A DNA stretch of 64,000 nt from the NCBI RefSeq assembly GCF_003334305.1, contig NZ_QOWS01000004.1; one strand, written 5' to 3'. The translations under genes were made by a program, and so were the position numbers. Origin of the DNA: Escherichia coli (GTDB lineage: Bacteria > Pseudomonadota > Gammaproteobacteria > Enterobacterales > Enterobacteriaceae). Below are positions 1,284 through 37,830 of the stretch, piece after piece; the first letter of the stretch is position 1; each line of letters starts with the position of its first letter. The notes under the pieces were generated by a model that saw only the letters and a list, made by a program, of their open reading frames with translations, did no database searches and was not told the origin of the DNA.

Positions 1284-1619
1284 CTACCCAATCAGTACGT
1301 TAATTTTGGCTTTAATGAGTTGTAATTCCTCTGGGACAACCGTTCCTTTCTTCGTTGCTCCTCTTGCCCGCCAGGCGATACTTTTTACCTGATCAGCTAA
1401 CGCTACGCCATCACGTTCCTGACCGGATAAAACAACTTCGAACGGATATCCTTTTGATTGCGTTGTACAAGGAACACACAGACACATACCTGTTTTGTTG
1501 TTGTACATGAAAGGACTCAGGACAACAGCTGGACGATGTCCAGCTTGCTCGCTACCTTTTGTCGGGTCAAAATCAACACAAATCAGATCGCCCATATCGG
1601 GTACGTATCGGCTTACCAT
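1284..1619 (-). CDS. mazF: Type II toxin MazF (mRNA interferase, ACA-specific endoribonuclease)
   Basis: 111-aa [16 protein letters not shown]...INVLIG, recognised as E. coli MazF; start overlaps mazE stop by 1 nt. Confidence 0.96.
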   Translation of the reverse strand: MVSRYVPDMGDLICVDFDPTKGSEQAGHRPAVVLSPFMYNNKTGMCLCVPCTTQSKGYPFEVVLSGQERDGVALADQVKSIAWRARGATKKGTVVPEELQLIKAKINVLIG

Positions 1620-1867
1620 TACCAGACTTCCTTATCTTTCGGCTCTCCCCAGTCGATATTCTCGTGGAGGTTTTCCGGCGTGATGTCGTTGACCAGTTCA
1701 GCAAGCGTAAATACGGGCTCTTTACGCACTGGCTCAATAATTAATTTGCCATCCACCAGGTCAATCTTCACTTCATCATCAATATTCAGATTGAGCGCCT
1801 GCATTAACGTAGCCGGGATCCGCACCGCCGGTGAATTTCCCCAACGCTTTACGCTACTGTGGATCAT
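1619..1867 (-). CDS. mazE: Type II antitoxin MazE
   Basis: 82-aa [50 protein letters not shown]..., recognised as E. coli MazE; directly upstream of mazF. Confidence 0.96.
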
Positions 1868-1944
1868 AACCCTTTCCTCAAACCGCTATCATATGTAGAT
1901 ACAGTATATATCAATCTACATTGTAGATACGAGCAAATTTCTGC

Positions 1945-4179
1945 CTAACTCCCGTGCAACCGACGCGCGTCGATAACATCCGGCACCTGGTTGAGTTTAC
2001 CCAGCACGCGGCCCAGCACCTGCAGGTTGTAAATCTCAATGGTCATGTCGATGGTTGCCAGTTGCTGTTTGGTGTCGCTACGGCTGGCAACACCAAGCAC
2101 GTTCACCTTCTCGTTGGCGAGAATGGTCGTGATATCACGTAACAACCCACTACGATCATTAGCCACCACGCGGACCACCAGCGAATATCCGGCGGAGTAG
2201 CTCTCACCCCATACCGCGTCAACAATGCGTTCTGGCGCATGGGAGCGCAGTTCCGCCAGTTGTTCGCAATCGGCGCGGTGTACTGAAATACCGCGCCCCT
2301 GGGTAATGAAGCCGACAATCTCATCTCCAGGAATCGGCTGGCAGCAGCGCGCGATGTGGTGCATCAGGTTGCCAACACCTTCGACCACCACGCGACCGTT
2401 ATCTTTACTGCGGTTTTGCGGCGTGTAGCTTTTTTGCTGAAGTTGCTTCAGCGCGGCGGCGTCCTGCTCTTCGGCACTCGGCTTATTAAATTGCGATTGC
2501 AGGAAGTTCACCATCTGATTGAGACGGATATCCCCGCCACCAATCGCCGCCAGCAACTCGTCGACATCATTAAAGTTGTAACGCGGCAGCAGATGTTTTT
2601 CTGCTTCTTTCAGGCTGATCCCCAGATGTTCCAGCTCGTCGTCAAGGATTTGCCGCCCAGCCAGAATGTTTTTGTCACGGTCCTGTTTACGGAACCAGGC
2701 GTGAATTTTCGAACGCCCACGGCTGGTTGTGACGTAACCGAGGTTTGGGTTTAACCAGTCACGGCTGGGGTTCGGCTGTTTCTGGGTGATAATTTCAATC
2801 TGGTCGCCCATCTGCAGCTGGTAGGTGAACGGCACAATGCGCCCGCCAATTTTTGCCCCGATGCAGCGGTGTCCGACATCACTGTGGATGTGGTAAGCGA
2901 AGTCCAGCGGCGTTGATCCCGCAGGCAAATCAACGACATCACCTTTCGGCGTAAAGACATACACCCGGTCGTCAAAGACCTGGCTGCGTACTTCGTCGAG
3001 CATTTCGCCGGAATCAGCCATCTCTTCCTGCCACGCAATCAGTTTACGCAGCCAGGCAATCCGGTCTTCATGTCCCGAACGTGCGCCGCCAGCTGCCGCG
3101 CCCTCTTTATATTTCCAGTGCGCAGCAACACCCAACTCTGCATCTTCATGCATCTGTTTGGTGCGGATTTGGATCTCAACGGTTTTGCCACCTGGCCCCA
3201 GAACCACGGTATGAATAGACTGATAACCGTTTGGTTTCGGGTTAGCGACATAATCGTCAAACTCATCCGGCAGGTGGCGATAGTGAGTGTGCACTATCCC
3301 CAGTGCGGCATAACAATCCTGTAAACGCTCGGCGACAATACGTACCGCACGCACATCAAACAGCTCATCGAAGGCGAGGTTCTTTTTCTGCATTTTGCGC
3401 CAGATGCTGTAGATGTGTTTCGGTCGACCATACACTTCAGCTTTAACGCCTTCAGCTTTCATCTCAGCGCGCAGATGGCCGACAAACTCTTCGATATAGT
3501 GTTCGCGGTCGAGACGGCGTTCATGCAGCAGTTTTGCGATGCGTTTGTATTCGGTCGGGTGGAGATAACGGAAGCAGTAATCTTCCAGCTCCCATTTCAG
3601 TTGCCCAATCCCAAGACGGTTCGCCAACGGCGCGTAGATATTGGTGCACTCTTTTGCCGCCAGTACGCGTTCATCTTCCGGCGCATCTTTTACTTCGCGC
3701 AGATGAGCAATACGCTCCGCCAGTTTGATGACCACGCAGCGAAAATCATCGACCATCGCCAATAACATCCGGCGAACGTTATCGACCTGTTCGGAGGAAA
3801 CAGAATCAGTGTGCGTCGCTTTCAGCTGGCGGATCGCCGCCATATCACGCACGCCGTGAATAAGGTTAACAACCGACTTACCGACGCTCTCACGCAGCAC
3901 ATCTTCGCTAACTACGTTGGCATCAGCCAGAGGGAACAGCAGCGCCGCCCGCAGCGTGTCAATGTCCATACTTAATGTCGAGAGGATCTCCACCATCTCA
4001 ACACCACGCCACAATAACAGACTGGCATCCGGATGCCCCTGCGTCTGTTGCAGACAATACGCCCAGGTTTCGGCTAAGCACTCACACGACTTCTGGCTGG
4101 TAATACCCAGACTTGCGATCCATTTTTCCGGATCAAATTCACCAGCCTTATTGATATGTGCACTTCTTACCGCAACCAT
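1945..4179 (-). CDS. relA: GTP pyrophosphokinase RelA ((p)ppGpp synthetase I)
   Basis: 744-aa ORF MVAVRSAHINKAGEFDPEKWIASLG..., full-length match to my memory of E. coli RelA. Confidence 0.97.
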   Translation of the reverse strand: MVAVRSAHINKAGEFDPEKWIASLGITSQKSCECLAETWAYCLQQTQGHPDASLLLWRGVEMVEILSTLSMDIDTLRAALLFPLADANVVSEDVLRESVGKSVVNLIHGVRDMAAIRQLKATHTDSVSSEQVDNVRRMLLAMVDDFRCVVIKLAERIAHLREVKDAPEDERVLAAKECTNIYAPLANRLGIGQLKWELEDYCFRYLHPTEYKRIAKLLHERRLDREHYIEEFVGHLRAEMKAEGVKAEVYGRPKHIYSIWRKMQKKNLAFDELFDVRAVRIVAERLQDCYAALGIVHTHYRHLPDEFDDYVANPKPNGYQSIHTVVLGPGGKTVEIQIRTKQMHEDAELGVAAHWKYKEGAAAGGARSGHEDRIAWLRKLIAWQEEMADSGEMLDEVRSQVFDDRVYVFTPKGDVVDLPAGSTPLDFAYHIHSDVGHRCIGAKIGGRIVPFTYQLQMGDQIEIITQKQPNPSRDWLNPNLGYVTTSRGRSKIHAWFRKQDRDKNILAGRQILDDELEHLGISLKEAEKHLLPRYNFNDVDELLAAIGGGDIRLNQMVNFLQSQFNKPSAEEQDAAALKQLQQKSYTPQNRSKDNGRVVVEGVGNLMHHIARCCQPIPGDEIVGFITQGRGISVHRADCEQLAELRSHAPERIVDAVWGESYSAGYSLVVRVVANDRSGLLRDITTILANEKVNVLGVASRSDTKQQLATIDMTIEIYNLQVLGRVLGKLNQVPDVIDARRLHGS

Positions 4180-5584: not shown

Positions 5585-8341
5585 ATGACCAACTACAGCC
5601 TGCGCGCACGCATGATGATTCTGATCCTGGCACCGACCGTCCTTATTGGTTTATTGCTGAGTATCTTTTTCGTCGTGCATCGCTATAACGACTTGCAGCG
5701 TCAACTGGAAGATGCCGGTGCCAGCATTATTGAGCCGCTTGCAGTTTCTACTGAATATGGCATGAGCCTGCAAAATCGCGAATCTATCGGTCAGTTAATA
5801 AGCGTACTGCATCGTCGCCATTCCGATATTGTTCGCGCGATTTCGGTTTATGATGAAAATAACCGACTCTTTGTCACCTCCAATTTTCATCTTGATCCCT
5901 CATCAATGCAGCTCGGCAGCAACGTGCCGTTTCCTCGCCAGCTCACTGTCACTCGTGACGGCGATATTATGATCCTCCGCACGCCGATTATTTCTGAGAG
6001 TTACTCCCCCGACGAATCGCCCAGTAGCGATGCCAAAAATAGTCAAAATATGTTGGGATATATTGCGCTTGAGCTGGATCTTAAATCGGTTCGCTTGCAG
6101 CAATATAAAGAGATCTTTATTTCCAGCGTGATGATGCTGTTTTGTATCGGTATTGCGCTTATTTTTGGCTGGCGCTTAATGCGCGATGTAACCGGTCCGA
6201 TTCGCAACATGGTGAATACCGTCGACCGCATCCGTCGCGGGCAACTCGACAGCCGGGTGGAAGGATTTATGCTCGGCGAGCTGGATATGCTGAAAAACGG
6301 TATCAACTCGATGGCAATGTCGCTGGCTGCTTATCACGAAGAGATGCAGCACAATATCGACCAGGCGACGTCCGATCTGCGTGAAACGCTGGAGCAGATG
6401 GAAATTCAGAACGTTGAGTTAGATCTGGCGAAAAAGCGCGCCCAGGAAGCGGCGCGTATTAAATCCGAGTTTCTGGCAAATATGTCACACGAGCTGCGTA
6501 CACCACTGAATGGTGTTATTGGCTTTACCCGCCTGACGCTGAAAACAGAATTAACACCAACGCAGCGCGATCACCTGAATACGATTGAACGTTCGGCAAA
6601 TAATTTGCTGGCAATTATTAATGATGTTCTCGACTTCTCGAAACTGGAAGCAGGTAAGCTGATTCTGGAAAGTATTCCATTCCCACTACGCAGCACGCTG
6701 GATGAAGTCGTTACTCTGCTGGCACATTCTTCTCACGATAAAGGGTTGGAACTGACGCTCAATATTAAAAGCGACGTGCCTGATAACGTGATCGGCGACC
6801 CACTGCGATTACAGCAAATCATCACTAACCTGGTGGGGAATGCAATTAAATTCACCGAGAATGGCAACATTGATATTCTGGTAGAAAAACGTGCGCTGAG
6901 TAATACCAAAGTGCAGATTGAAGTGCAGATTCGGGATACCGGCATTGGTATTCCTGAACGCGATCAATCGCGCTTATTCCAGGCCTTCCGACAGGCTGAT
7001 GCCAGTATTTCCCGCCGTCATGGTGGCACCGGTCTGGGGCTGGTGATTACACAAAAACTGGTTAATGAAATGGGCGGCGATATTTCGTTCCATAGCCAGC
7101 CGAATCGCGGTTCAACTTTCTGGTTCCACATTAATCTCGATCTGAACCCGAACATTATTATCGAAGGGCCATCCACCCAGTGCCTCGCCGGTAAGCGCCT
7201 GGCCTATGTCGAACCAAACTCCGCAGCAGCGCAATGCACGCTGGATATTTTAAGTGAAACGCCGCTGGAAGTGGTTTATAGCCCAACGTTCTCCGCGCTG
7301 CCTCCCGCGCATTACGACATGATGTTGTTAGGCATCGCGGTGACCTTCCGCGAGCCGCTAACAATGCAACATGAGCGATTAGCGAAAGCGGTATCGATGA
7401 CCGATTTCCTGATGCTGGCACTTCCTTGCCATGCACAAGTCAATGCAGAAAAACTCAAGCAAGATGGTATCGGCGCGTGTCTGCTGAAACCATTAACACC
7501 TACGCGCCTGTTGCCTGCCCTGACGGAATTTTGTCATCACAAACAAAACACGCTTTTGCCTGTAACCGATGAAAGCAAGCTGGCAATGACAGTCATGGCA
7601 GTTGATGACAACCCCGCTAACCTGAAACTTATCGGCGCATTGCTGGAAGATATGGTGCAACATGTGGAACTTTGCGATAGCGGGCATCAGGCGGTTGAAC
7701 GGGCGAAACAGATGCCGTTCGATTTGATCTTAATGGATATTCAAATGCCTGACATGGATGGCATTCGGGCCTGCGAGCTCATCCACCAGCTCCCCCATCA
7801 GCAACAAACGCCGGTTATCGCGGTAACGGCGCATGCAATGGCCGGGCAAAAAGAGAAGCTGCTTGGCGCAGGGATGAGCGATTATCTGGCGAAACCGATT
7901 GAAGAAGAGCGATTGCATAATTTGTTGTTGCGCTACAAGCCTGGCAGCGGTATTTCCTCTCGCGTCGTGACGCCCGAAGTCAACGAAATTGTGGTGAACC
8001 CGAATGCGACCCTCGACTGGCAACTGGCACTACGCCAGGCAGCAGGAAAAACCGATTTAGCGCGCGATATGCTGCAAATGTTACTCGATTTCCTGCCTGA
8101 AGTTCGCAACAAAGTTGAGGAACAGCTGGTTGGAGAAAACCCGGAAGGCCTGGTTGATTTGATTCATAAACTGCATGGCAGTTGCGGCTATAGCGGTGTG
8201 CCGCGTATGAAGAATCTCTGCCAACTGATCGAACAACAGCTACGTAGCGGTACTAAAGAAGAAGATTTGGAGCCGGAGCTGCTGGAACTGTTGGACGAGA
8301 TGGATAATGTAGCGCGCGAAGCCAGCAAAATTCTCGGGTAA
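5585..8341 (+). CDS. barA: Hybrid sensor histidine kinase BarA (tripartite HK-REC-HPt)
   Basis: 918-aa [34 protein letters not shown]... with an H-box ([17 protein letters not shown]), a receiver domain ([14 protein letters not shown]) and a C-terminal HPt region. Confidence 0.97.
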
Positions 8342-13529: not shown

Positions 13530-14312
13530 TTAGGAACTTATCTCTCCATCCTGACCCGATGGCGCACTGAACTCAACCCTTTCATTTTCAGGAAGCAGAC
13601 CGCGCCAGCCAAATTGTGATAACGCCTGCATCCAGGTGTCGTCCAGGCCCGCGTGAATAGTCAGCGGCTCGCCAGTAAAAGGATGCGTCAATGACAACTG
13701 ACTGGCATGTAGCATTAACCGCTGGAGGCCAAAATGCTCAGCACCGCTGCGATTCTGGCGTAAATCGCCATGTTTGCTATCGCCAATAATCGGATGACGC
13801 AAATGGGCAAGATGTCGGCGAAGCTGATGTTTGCGTCCGGTTTTCGGCTCCAGTTCCACCAGGCCGTAGCGCGTGGTCGGGTAACGTCCGGTCGCTACCG
13901 GCATTTCTACGGTCGCCAGACCGCGATAATGCGTCACTGCTGGCTGCGAGCCTTTATCTTCGCGGGCAAATTTATCAGCGATTTTGTCCAGTTCTTCCAC
14001 CAGTGGATAATCCAGAACTGCTTCTTCCATCAACCAGCCGCGCACAATCGCATGGTAACGTTTCTGGATTTGGTGCTGTTCAAACTGTTGTGCCAGCAGC
14101 CGTCCGGCCTCGCTGGATAATCCCATCAACAACACACCAGAAGTGGGTCGGTCCAGACGATGAGCGGTAAAAACGTGCTGGCCAATCTGATCACGCACGG
14201 TTTGCATGACCACTACTTTCTCGTCGCGATCCAGCCAGCTGCGGTGAACCAGCCAGCCGGAGGGTTTATTTACCGCAACCAGCCATTCATCCTGATAGAG
14301 TATTTCCAGCAT
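13530..14312 (-). CDS. truC: tRNA pseudouridine(65) synthase TruC
   Basis: 260-aa [28 protein letters not shown]... with the RluA-family catalytic motif [12 protein letters not shown]. Confidence 0.93.
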
Positions 14313-14641
14313 TAGCTCGCATCATCCGCAAAAAGAGCATCCAGTTTTTCCAGCTCAGCCAGAATAAGCGCGCGTTGCGGATGGTCCGTCGCCAGCGCCA
14401 TTTCATAATAGGGTGCAACGGCAAAAGCGCCCGGTAACGGCTGTTTGTTATCTAACAAATCGTGCATTCGCGGGATCAGCACCCACTGCAACCACTCCAG
14501 TGGTTCCATGGTGTCCATAAAGAACGGTTGGGTACTATTAAATTGATGCGGCTGGGGTTCATCGTTTCGCCAGTGCTGATGTTCACGCAGTAACGCTTCA
14601 AGCGCCTGCAACTGGAGACGAACGCGGTCATGAGTGGTCAT
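14312..14641 (-). CDS. yqcC: Conserved protein YqcC (DUF446), function unknown
   Basis: 109-aa ORF MTTHDRVRLQLQALEALLREHQHWRNDEPQ...; stop overlaps truC start (ATGA), suggesting translational coupling. Confidence 0.88.
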   Translation of the reverse strand: MTTHDRVRLQLQALEALLREHQHWRNDEPQPHQFNSTQPFFMDTMEPLEWLQWVLIPRMHDLLDNKQPLPGAFAVAPYYEMALATDHPQRALILAELEKLDALFADDAS

Positions 14642-14683
14642 AAAGCAACCTCAATAAGAAAAACTGCCGCGAAGGATAGCAGG

Positions 14684-15052
14684 AATAAAAAAAGGGAGCA
14701 CTGTATTCACAGCGCTCCCGGTTCGTTTCGCAGCATTCCAGCTACTTTTGTTGCTCCCTGCTCATCCTTGACAACTTTTCCTCTGGCCTTGCGGCCAATC
14801 GTTCATCCTGAACTATTGCTTCCTGCTCACACCACCCCGATGTGATACTTCATCCTGAAGTGTCCCTGGCCTTCCTGACCCACCGAATCATCCTGACCGG
14901 TTCTCATTCTCCATCCTGGAGGTGTCCTTTAACGCGTCCTGCGTCATCCTCTTCGCTTCATCCAGAAGCCTTTCCCTGAAACACCATCCTGGTGTGTCCT
15001 GCAGAAGTGTCATCATCCTGATGTTCACTTCGTTGTCTGACTCCCTGTCGAC
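14684..15052 (-). ncRNA. csrB: CsrB small RNA (CsrA-sequestering sRNA)
   Basis: No long ORF. The plus strand carries at least 8 exact CATCCTG heptamers (CAGGATG on the minus strand) plus about 10 further TCCTG/GGA variants spaced ~15-25 nt apart. Minus-strand 5' end GTCGACAGGGAGTCAGACAACGAAG; 3' end is a GC hairpin (gggagcactgtattcacagcgctccc) followed by a U-run. Confidence 0.93.
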
Positions 15053-15225
15053 GAAGATAGAATCGTCTTTTTCGCGAAGTCTTACAAGGCGCTTACAGAC
15101 AATGCCTTAAGGAAAATTTCATATGAAAGTTAAGAATTAACAATCAACATTTTGATTTTAAATGAAAATAACGATTCTTATCTTTTTAAGTATTCGCTTA
15201 TTTCCTGGCGATCTCCTACAGAGTC

Positions 15226-15243
15226 TGTAAGAGATCTCTCACA
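15226..15243. promoter_or_regulatory. UvrY/GacA-type inverted repeat upstream of csrB
   Basis: tgtaagagatctctcaca is an 18-bp near-perfect palindrome, ~175-190 bp upstream of the csrB 5' end on the minus strand; it matches the response-regulator box described for csrB-family promoters. Confidence 0.65.
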
Positions 15244-15262
15244 ACCAGATGGGGTATTTGGA

Positions 15263-15808
15263 TTACAGAAGAGGCTTAAGTTGATTAAGGAATTCCGCAA
15301 GATTTGAGGCTAAATGCGTCCGTTTACGTGTTCCCAGCGTCTCTTTGCACACTTCACCGGAGAGATTACACACCGAGATGACCTCTAACTCTTCTTCCAG
15401 CGTCGCGATAAATAGCGTGGGCGGCAGTTTTAGCCTTTTCTGAGTCACCAGATGACCAATCAGATTTTCCTGCACCCGACGGAAGTCGTCTTCACTCCAG
15501 GTTTGCAGCAATGTCAGTTTGATATCGCCAAACTGCGCGTGCATATCCCCGGCAAACTGAGTCGTATAAAAGGTATGAATTGTGGGTTGTATCACAATAT
15601 CAAAAGCGCGTTCAACCGCGTTTACATTTTGTTCCCCGGTAAACGGCTGGGGTTGCCAGTATACGGCATCTTCGGTAGTTGAAATAATGCACGGTGAAGG
15701 AACACCGTACAGTTCCTCACTTAACGGCCAGCTTTTATGCTCTTCATGCCACGCATCGCAGTAGCGTGCAGTAAAATCTTTCAGGGCTTGTGCGGTCAAA
15801 TCGTCCAC
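15263..15808 (-). CDS. syd: SecY-interacting protein Syd
   Basis: 181-aa [43 protein letters not shown]..., recognised as E. coli Syd. Confidence 0.92.
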
Positions 15809-33224: not shown

Positions 33225-33430
33225 ACTTCCTGAGCCGGAACGAAAAGTTTTATCGGAATGCGTGTTCTGGTGAACTTTTGGCTTACGGTTGTGATGTTGT
33301 GTTGTTGTGTTTGCAATTGGTCTGCGATTCAGACCATGGTAGCAAAGCTACCTTTTTTCACTTCCTGTACATTTACCCTGTCTGTCCATAGTGATTAATG
33401 TAGCACCGCCTAATTGCGGTGCTTTTTTTT
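33225..33430 (+). ncRNA. gcvB: GcvB small regulatory RNA
   Basis: No ORF. Begins ACTTCCTGAGCCGGAACG, carries the GU-rich seed tract GTTGTGATGTTGTGTTGTTGTGTTTGC, and ends in the intrinsic terminator gcaccgcctaattgcggtgc + T8. It is divergent from gcvA, the canonical arrangement. Confidence 0.93.
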
Positions 33431-36371: not shown

Positions 36372-36447
36372 AGCACCTCAGAATTAAAAAGGGTGAGGTT
36401 ATCCCTCACCCTGGCGTATCCGTAAAAACGGTATACAGAATAACACA

Positions 36448-37753: not shown

Positions 37754-37830
<77 letters not shown>

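Follow-up and report, generated by a model that had tools for sequence, protein, structure and literature searches.

The csrB locus of a non-K-12 Escherichia coli strain: identity with K-12, RNA structure and control elements

The csrB locus and its chromosomal setting

We analysed a stretch of 64,000 nucleotides from E. coli (assembly GCF_003334305.1, contig NZ_QOWS01000004.1), referred to here as the window, in which a GGA-rich interval on the minus strand at 14684–15052 lies between two open reading frames of the same strand that correspond to K-12 syd (15263–15808) and K-12 yqcC (14312–14641). An earlier note on this DNA had read the interval as the gene of the CsrA-sequestering RNA CsrB. 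The Rfam covariance-model search proposed there returned family RF00018 (CsrB) on the minus strand at 15043–14684, covering model positions 1–356 of 356 with 380.4 bits (E = 1.2e-110), compared with a gathering score of 71 bits; the lack of a CsrB hit, named in the note as refuting, was thus not observed. Alignment of 14600–15320 with K-12 MG1655 comprised 721 nt and was 100% identical throughout the gene, the promoter region and both flanks. In K-12 MG1655, csrB is the ncRNA b4408 of 369 nt (NC_000913.3, 2924156–2924524, complement), located between yqcC and syd, and its coordinates map exactly onto window 14684–15052, so that the interval coincides with the annotated gene to the base in the K-12 coordinate frame. 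The identification as csrB is thus borne out by a full-length family match together with base-for-base identity to b4408. From this comparison, the interval is almost certainly the chromosomal csrB of a non-K-12 E. coli strain, with gene and promoter identical to those of K-12. The locus is already fully known, a textbook csrB, and this copy adds nothing new, since the biology has been established on the K-12 gene, from which it does not differ. Along the minus strand, from upstream to downstream, the following features were located:

15226–15243, minus strand: 18-bp palindrome TGTGAGAGATCTCTTACA, the UvrY site, assigned by its sequence and by its centre at −183/−182 as in PMC4682653
15212–15220, minus strand: TGTAGGAGA, a partially conserved half-site-like element 5 bp downstream of the palindrome, described in PMC4682653
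15145–15157, minus strand: match to the IHF consensus, AATCAAAATGTTG (WATCAANNNNTTR), at −105 to −93 between UvrY site and promoter, from a consensus search
15059–15087, minus strand: putative weak sigma-70 core promoter, −35 TTGTAA at 15087–15082, 17-bp spacer, −10 GATTCT at 15064–15059, read relative to +1 = 15052
14684–15052, minus strand: csrB gene, a 369-nt non-coding RNA with 22 GGA motifs, from Rfam RF00018 and identity to K-12 b4408
14733–15023, minus strand: array of short hairpins with GGA (typically CAGGAUG) in most loops, plus single-stranded GGA sites, from the Rfam structure and covariation
14755–14757, minus strand: GGA site 20, nt 296–298, from the motif scan; invariant in 68 of 68 homologues, by construction
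14737–14739, minus strand: GGA site 21, nt 314–316, located in the loop of the final hairpin ahead of the terminator, from the motif scan and the Rfam structure; invariance likewise by construction
14722–14726, minus strand: the 'necessary cleavage site' of RNase E at A327 and A331, part of AAACGAACC shortly before the terminator (PMC5027483)
14684–14719, minus strand: Rho-independent terminator, stem-loop 14719–14694 followed by the T-run TTTTTTTATT at 14693–14684, from the terminator scan

Motif content by itself does not discriminate CsrB from other sponge RNAs of the Csr/Rsm clan, whose members all have hairpins with GGA in the loop and a terminator. It is nevertheless very improbable that the interval holds a different member (of the CsrC, RsmB or RsmX/Y/Z type) or a degenerate, non-functional copy. 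CsrB is the best overlapping match within clan CL00106, spanning the whole model at 380 bits, and both the sequence and the flanks, with syd upstream and yqcC downstream, are those of K-12 csrB. The palindrome of csrC differs from that of csrB (TGTGAGACATTGCCGATA; PMC4682653), and it is the exact csrB form which is present in the window, while a copy identical to the functional K-12 gene cannot be a decayed one. The reading of the interval as an intact csrB is therefore retained.

Outside this locus, the window matches K-12 at about 99% identity (98.98% across the first 36.4 kb, with 367 mismatches and 370 differences in all). Between 14191 and 15415 there are zero differences, whereas the neighbouring genes diverge by 0.2–2.5%. 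This difference-free stretch of 1.2 kb takes in the first 122 nt of truC, yqcC in full, csrB together with its promoter and the 3' end of syd. Purifying selection acting on csrB could account for it, as could a recombination patch. Within the species, the csrB sequence was found in 5,426 of 5,426 complete E. coli genomes, nearly always as a single copy and with an identity of at least 99% in 4,513 of them; coverage was below 80% in three. The arrangement syd-csrB-yqcC is likewise maintained across the homologous loci described below, with both neighbours present in 66 of 78 and the exceptions being mostly short loci. We also considered a plasmid-borne csrB, since the genome survey assigned one copy to a plasmid; a PLSDB search gave four records with csrB (NZ_OL790696.1, NZ_CP141089.1, NZ_CP134663.1 and NZ_LN868944.1). 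These records measure 0.7–4.9 Mb and are mislabelled chromosomes or chromosome fragments, and csrB is consequently not plasmid-borne; the 5,426 complete genomes and the PLSDB search gave no evidence of a mobile csrB. Among the matches listed, RefSeq (PGAP-annotated) E. coli chromosomes carry no feature of any kind under the csrB sequence, from which we conclude that routine automated annotation omits the gene; the K-12 reference record does annotate it.

Several further features of the window were recorded in passing. A second sRNA gene, gcvB, lies at 33225–33430 on the plus strand (Rfam RF00022, 199 bits, full length) and adjoins gcvA as in K-12. A single initiator tRNA-Met gene was found at 37754–37830 on the plus strand by ARAGORN and Rfam, where K-12 MG1655 has three in tandem (metZ, metW and metV), and BLAST against K-12 shows this triplet collapsed to one unit in the window. 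At about 36393–36412, in the tcdA-mltA intergenic region, the alignment with K-12 MG1655 breaks and the K-12 coordinates jump by 161, marking a 161-bp insertion/deletion which may be a REP-type element. The left part of the window (1284–4179, minus strand) contains the mazEF toxin-antitoxin pair and relA as in K-12, whose record also annotates the antisense RNA ameF across mazE-mazF.

GGA motifs, RNA structure and covariation

The minus strand of 14684–15052 contains 22 GGA and the plus strand two, the former in agreement with the 22 GGA reported for the 369-nt CsrB RNA of E. coli (PMC5027483). The exact heptamer CAGGATG was found six times, always on the minus strand, with starts at 14804, 14851, 14889, 14912, 14985 and 15014; the whole window holds 25 matches to it, of which these six fall inside the 369 nt of csrB. 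More relaxed forms are more frequent on the minus strand of the gene, namely AGGATG (8), CAGGANG (9) and AGGA (14). The description given in the earlier note, a GGA-rich minus-strand stretch ending in a strong intrinsic terminator, could be confirmed by the motif count and by the terminator scan, while its figures require correction. It counted at least eight exact CAGGATG, a number which instead belongs to the hexamer AGGATG, the heptamer being present six times. Its roughly ten additional GGA variants, implying a total of about 18, are in fact 16, giving the total of 22. The regular spacing it described was not found either, since the distance between successive GGA varies from 4 to 32 nt (mean 15) and a search with Tandem Repeats Finder gave no array.

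The csrB region stands out in the window by its GGA content. Tiles of 360 nt over both strands contain 4.45 ± 2.37 GGA, and the maximum of 21 is the csrB region. The base composition of the minus strand at 15043–14684 (110 A, 119 G, 65 C and 66 T) accounts for a good part of this, as mononucleotide shuffles of 14684–15043 contain 12.0 ± 2.7 GGA with a maximum of 22, compared with 21 observed (about 3.3 sd). Because the RNA is 64% purine and shuffles of its own bases are already rich in GGA, the enrichment beyond composition is moderate. The signal is carried by the extended CAGGATG motif, by its strand specificity and by its placement in loops.

With respect to this placement, the partition function gave a mean probability of being unpaired of 0.79 for GGA compared with 0.36 for other nucleotides, and sets of random triplets reached at most 0.67. 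Within the Rfam match (15043–14684), 11 of 21 GGA lie wholly in Rfam hairpin loops, although these loops make up 19% of the nucleotides; of the others, most fall in single-stranded linkers and one falls in the stem of the terminator. The single-sequence minimum free energy (MFE) fold, at −118.8 kcal/mol (z = −3.99 vs dinucleotide shuffles), puts just 8 of these 21 GGA in hairpin loops. We rejected this fold as a structural model, its long-range pairing between 5' and 3' parts being without support in the Rfam structure, and used the covariation-tested hairpins instead. It should be noted that the fold of full-length CsrB may not be the same in vitro as in vivo (PMC5027483). The expectation of the earlier note that folding would place the GGA motifs in hairpin loops thus held, with GGA preferentially unpaired and 11 of 21 in Rfam loops, compared with 8 of 21 from MFE alone. 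The hairpin array and the single-stranded GGA sites at 14733–15023 are, as predicted from motif and structure, the CsrA-binding sites.

Homologous loci were collected with a degenerate pattern of 31 nt, taken from the 3' portion of the RNA and run against the GTDB representative genomes, one for each species. This yielded 78 loci from Citrobacter, Salmonella, Enterobacter, Kosakonia, Leclercia, Cedecea, Hafnia, Mangrovibacter, Erwinia and others, 73 of which are complete and 70–99% identical to the query. Two loci come from assemblies labelled as non-enterobacterial, with an enterobacterial csrB in a 797-nt contig of Phyllobacterium myrsinacearum (an alphaproteobacterium) and in Chryseobacterium sp. 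18061 (Bacteroidota). The alignment statistics of the latter are the same as those of Citrobacter sp. 18056 from the same study. Both cases probably represent contamination or mislabelling of public assemblies.

For the covariation test, 69 Enterobacterales sequences including the window, from about 25 genera, were aligned and the Rfam structure was projected through the window row. Standard pairs fill 95.8% of the pair cells, and compensatory changes on both sides were observed in 24 of 54 pairs. None of 500 column shuffles reached any of the five measures of the test, and sliding the 3' partners by 1–3 columns reduced pairing to 35–49%; these values are to be read with the caveat that the structure tested derives from the Rfam model of the same family. 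In the same alignment, mean column identity is highest for GGA (95%), followed by stems (90%) and by the remaining columns that are neither (78%). Homologues contain 16–29 GGA with a median of 23. Outside the search pattern, 15 of the 18 GGA sites are kept in 81–100% of homologues, and sites 1, 5 and 14 in 40–62%, while the invariance of GGA sites 19–21 holds by construction, since these sites fall inside the pattern.

An internal deletion allele was encountered in E. coli FDAARGOS_1292 (NZ_CP070124.1; locus L081, about 3283). Here csrB lacks 65 nt equivalent to window 14764–14828, with the deletion running exactly between two copies of a direct repeat, D6 (GAGCAGGAAGCAA, GAGCAGGGAGCAA; 65 nt apart). 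GGA sites 17–19 are removed and sites 16 and 20 fused. An insertion element as the cause of this truncated copy was ruled out, the change being the internal deletion itself, which looks like the product of repeat-mediated slippage or recombination. Such repeat-mediated internal deletions could tune the capacity for CsrA buffering in natural isolates.

Two readings of the interval other than as an RNA gene were weighed against these data. The first is a small protein. The earlier note had called the interval free of open reading frames and of coding potential; its non-coding character was upheld, but four mechanical open reading frames of 45–71 aa do overlap 14684–15052, for example one of 46 aa on the sense strand at 14888–15028. 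That one of them is a gene is highly unlikely, given that just 7–20 of 68 homologues, essentially the closest relatives, keep the frames open and in phase, that length changes are not a multiple of three in 35–40 and in-frame stops occur in 40–60 of the 68, and that the K-12 record annotates no CDS within csrB.

The second, a DNA-level tandem repeat or CRISPR-like array in place of an RNA gene, a confusion against which the earlier note had warned, is likewise highly unlikely. Short direct-repeat families do exist in csrB, a 13-nt unit in five copies and units of 15–16 nt in four; the top family consists of a palindromic hairpin unit, its five 13-nt copies lying 47–61 nt apart. However, Tandem Repeats Finder on 14500–15300 stayed blank even at its lowest score of 30, and the units, 13–16 nt long and 75–92% alike, are irregularly spaced (13–134 nt), each of them a small palindrome and as such a hairpin. 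CRISPR repeats, in contrast, measure 28–37 nt and have spacers of constant size. The strand specificity of GGA (22 vs 2), the covariation of the hairpins and the full-length match to Rfam CsrB likewise argue against an array. The region is csrB, and the practical use of this result lies in annotation, where it should be masked as a known sRNA and not be reported as a repeat array.

Promoter, terminator and decay determinants

At csrB, phosphorylated UvrY has been shown to bind specifically to an 18-nt sequence centred at −183/−182 (PMC4682653). In the window, the palindrome is centred at the same distance if +1 is taken as 15052, and the annotated 5' end is thereby independently supported. The element is well conserved. 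Among the homologous loci with enough upstream sequence, all 62 have it with at most three mismatches and 47 exactly, and its centre lies at −180 to −186 in 60 of the 62, while the best match in shuffled controls has at least five mismatches. Between this palindrome and the csrB promoter, a putative IHF site has also been reported (PMC4682653), to which the match at 15145–15157 may correspond. The consensus has just five matches in the whole window on both strands, and 16 of 63 homologues retain its strict form at −104 to −106. The gene of the sensor kinase of this pathway, barA, is located in the same window at 5585–8341 (plus strand), 6.3 kb from csrB, and is 99.4% identical to K-12 barA (16 differences in 2,757 nt).

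A sigma-70 consensus scan of 14300–15500 on both strands returned no promoter-like site, which we attribute to the weakness of the csrB promoter, assigned by hand from the published +1. Its putative −35 hexamer TTGTAA matches the consensus in four of six positions and the putative −10 hexamer GATTCT in three of six. In 67 Enterobacterales sequences, all positions of the two hexamers but one are conserved to at least 90%, the exception being the fifth base of the −35 hexamer with at least 70%. A weak promoter fits dependence on an activator, as far as the hexamers, which we infer from their position, are correctly assigned.

At the other end of the gene, the minus strand reads GGGAGCGCTGTGAATACAGTGCTCCC and then TTTTTTTATT, and the terminator scan describes a stem of 11 bp with seven G-C pairs, a loop of 4 nt and a T7 run. 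The terminator equals helix 13 of the Rfam structure, in which all ten pairs are 100% paired in the 69 sequences, with compensatory changes in two of them. Immediately upstream lies the entry site for decay. Major RNase E cleavages have been mapped to A327 and A331 of the 369-nt CsrB (PMC5027483), which translate to window 14726 and 14722, and both positions are A in the window sequence. In the alignment of 69 sequences, A326–A331 and C333 show no variation, and A325 and C332 are conserved to at least 90%. The RNase E segment AAACGAACC and the terminator, although located outside the search pattern, are almost invariant.

CsrA bound at GGA sites 20 and 21 is reported to shield this entry site from RNase E, and lifting the protection requires CsrD (PMC5027483). 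In our numbering, GGA sites 19, 20, 21 and 22 are found at nt 286, 296, 314 and 335. In the same publication, site 19 is flanked by residues 278–281 and 289–291 and site 22 resides in the terminator, and for sites 18–22 both numberings agree (PMC5027483). The one Erwinia sequence among the loci, a divergent homologue in Erwinia sp. 198 (locus L074, 749–1137), aligns with E. coli csrB only in its 3' part of about 100 nt, with 87.6% identity over 97 nt. The aligned part comprises GGA sites 19–21, the RNase E site and the terminator, while the hairpin array of the 5' part has diverged too far for BLAST to recognise it. Conservation in the CsrB RNA thus appears to be highest in the decay-control module, bearing in mind that the search pattern is biased towards it.

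The start codon of yqcC (14641) follows 43 nt past the 3' end of csrB, and this spacer measures 38–65 nt in 52 Enterobacterales species. As the scan of 14300–15500 showed no sigma-70-like site, read-through from the csrB promoter, which is very strongly expressed, could in principle feed yqcC-truC-yqcA and would then bring a tRNA pseudouridine synthase operon under the control of BarA-UvrY. We regard this as unlikely, and the csrB terminator looks strong. Alternatively, a non-consensus yqcC promoter inside the 3' part of csrB may feed the operon. A search of open-access papers gave nothing on read-through from csrB into yqcC, the papers returned only listing both as neighbouring genes.

Proposed mechanism and comparison with known systems

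We propose that the locus operates as established for K-12. Identity to K-12, family membership, motifs, loop placement, covariation, promoter, UvrY and IHF elements, terminator and synteny were read from the DNA analysed here, and CsrA binding and sequestration, dependence on UvrY and IHF and the decay pathway are taken from work on the identical K-12 sequence (PMC4682653, PMC5027483). In this model, csrB would be transcribed along the minus strand from the weak sigma-70 promoter with +1 at 15052. BarA would phosphorylate UvrY, and UvrY-P would activate the promoter from the palindrome some 183 bp upstream, with the help of IHF. The untranslated 369-nt RNA would fold into short hairpins presenting GGA, mostly as CAGGAUG, in their loops, with more GGA in the linkers and 22 in total. 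A CsrA homodimer, having two RNA-binding surfaces, would bridge two GGA sites, and a single CsrB could in this way hold many dimers. The original description of CsrB in 1997 reportedly gave about 9 CsrA dimers per RNA. CsrA would thus be titrated off its lower-affinity mRNA targets, and its control of glycogen synthesis, biofilm, motility and central carbon metabolism would be reversed. Transcription of the RNA would end at the strong intrinsic terminator. Decay would begin with cleavage by RNase E at AAACGAAC, just upstream of the terminator, a step expected to be blocked by CsrA on GGA sites 20 and 21 until CsrD overcomes the block. CsrB is a central node of the global Csr regulation of carbon storage, biofilm, motility and virulence.

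Compared with K-12 csrB, the copy in the window has the same neighbours, syd on one side and yqcC-truC-yqcA on the other, the same 22 GGA, the same terminator, the same UvrY palindrome and the same RNase E site. Only the host strain differs, the window having one tRNA-fMet gene and K-12 three.

Among related RNAs, CsrC is shorter than CsrB, has fewer GGA sites and is encoded at another locus of E. coli. It resembles CsrB in its multiple GGA sites, in its decay dependent on CsrD and RNase E and in its activation by BarA-UvrY via a far-upstream inverted repeat (PMC4682653, PMC5027483), and differs in that its UvrY repeat is less symmetric and an IHF site is not apparent (PMC4682653). Among the sponge RNAs of other Gammaproteobacteria, RsmX/Y/Z of Pseudomonas are much shorter, with fewer sites. 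The pseudomonads are without CsrD, the protein there stabilising the sRNA (PMC5027483). RsmB of Pectobacterium/Erwinia belongs to the same Rfam family as CsrB, RF00018. Common to RsmB and RsmX/Y/Z with CsrB are loop GGA motifs that titrate CsrA/RsmA/RsmE dimers, and a transcription dependent on GacS/GacA, the orthologues of BarA/UvrY.
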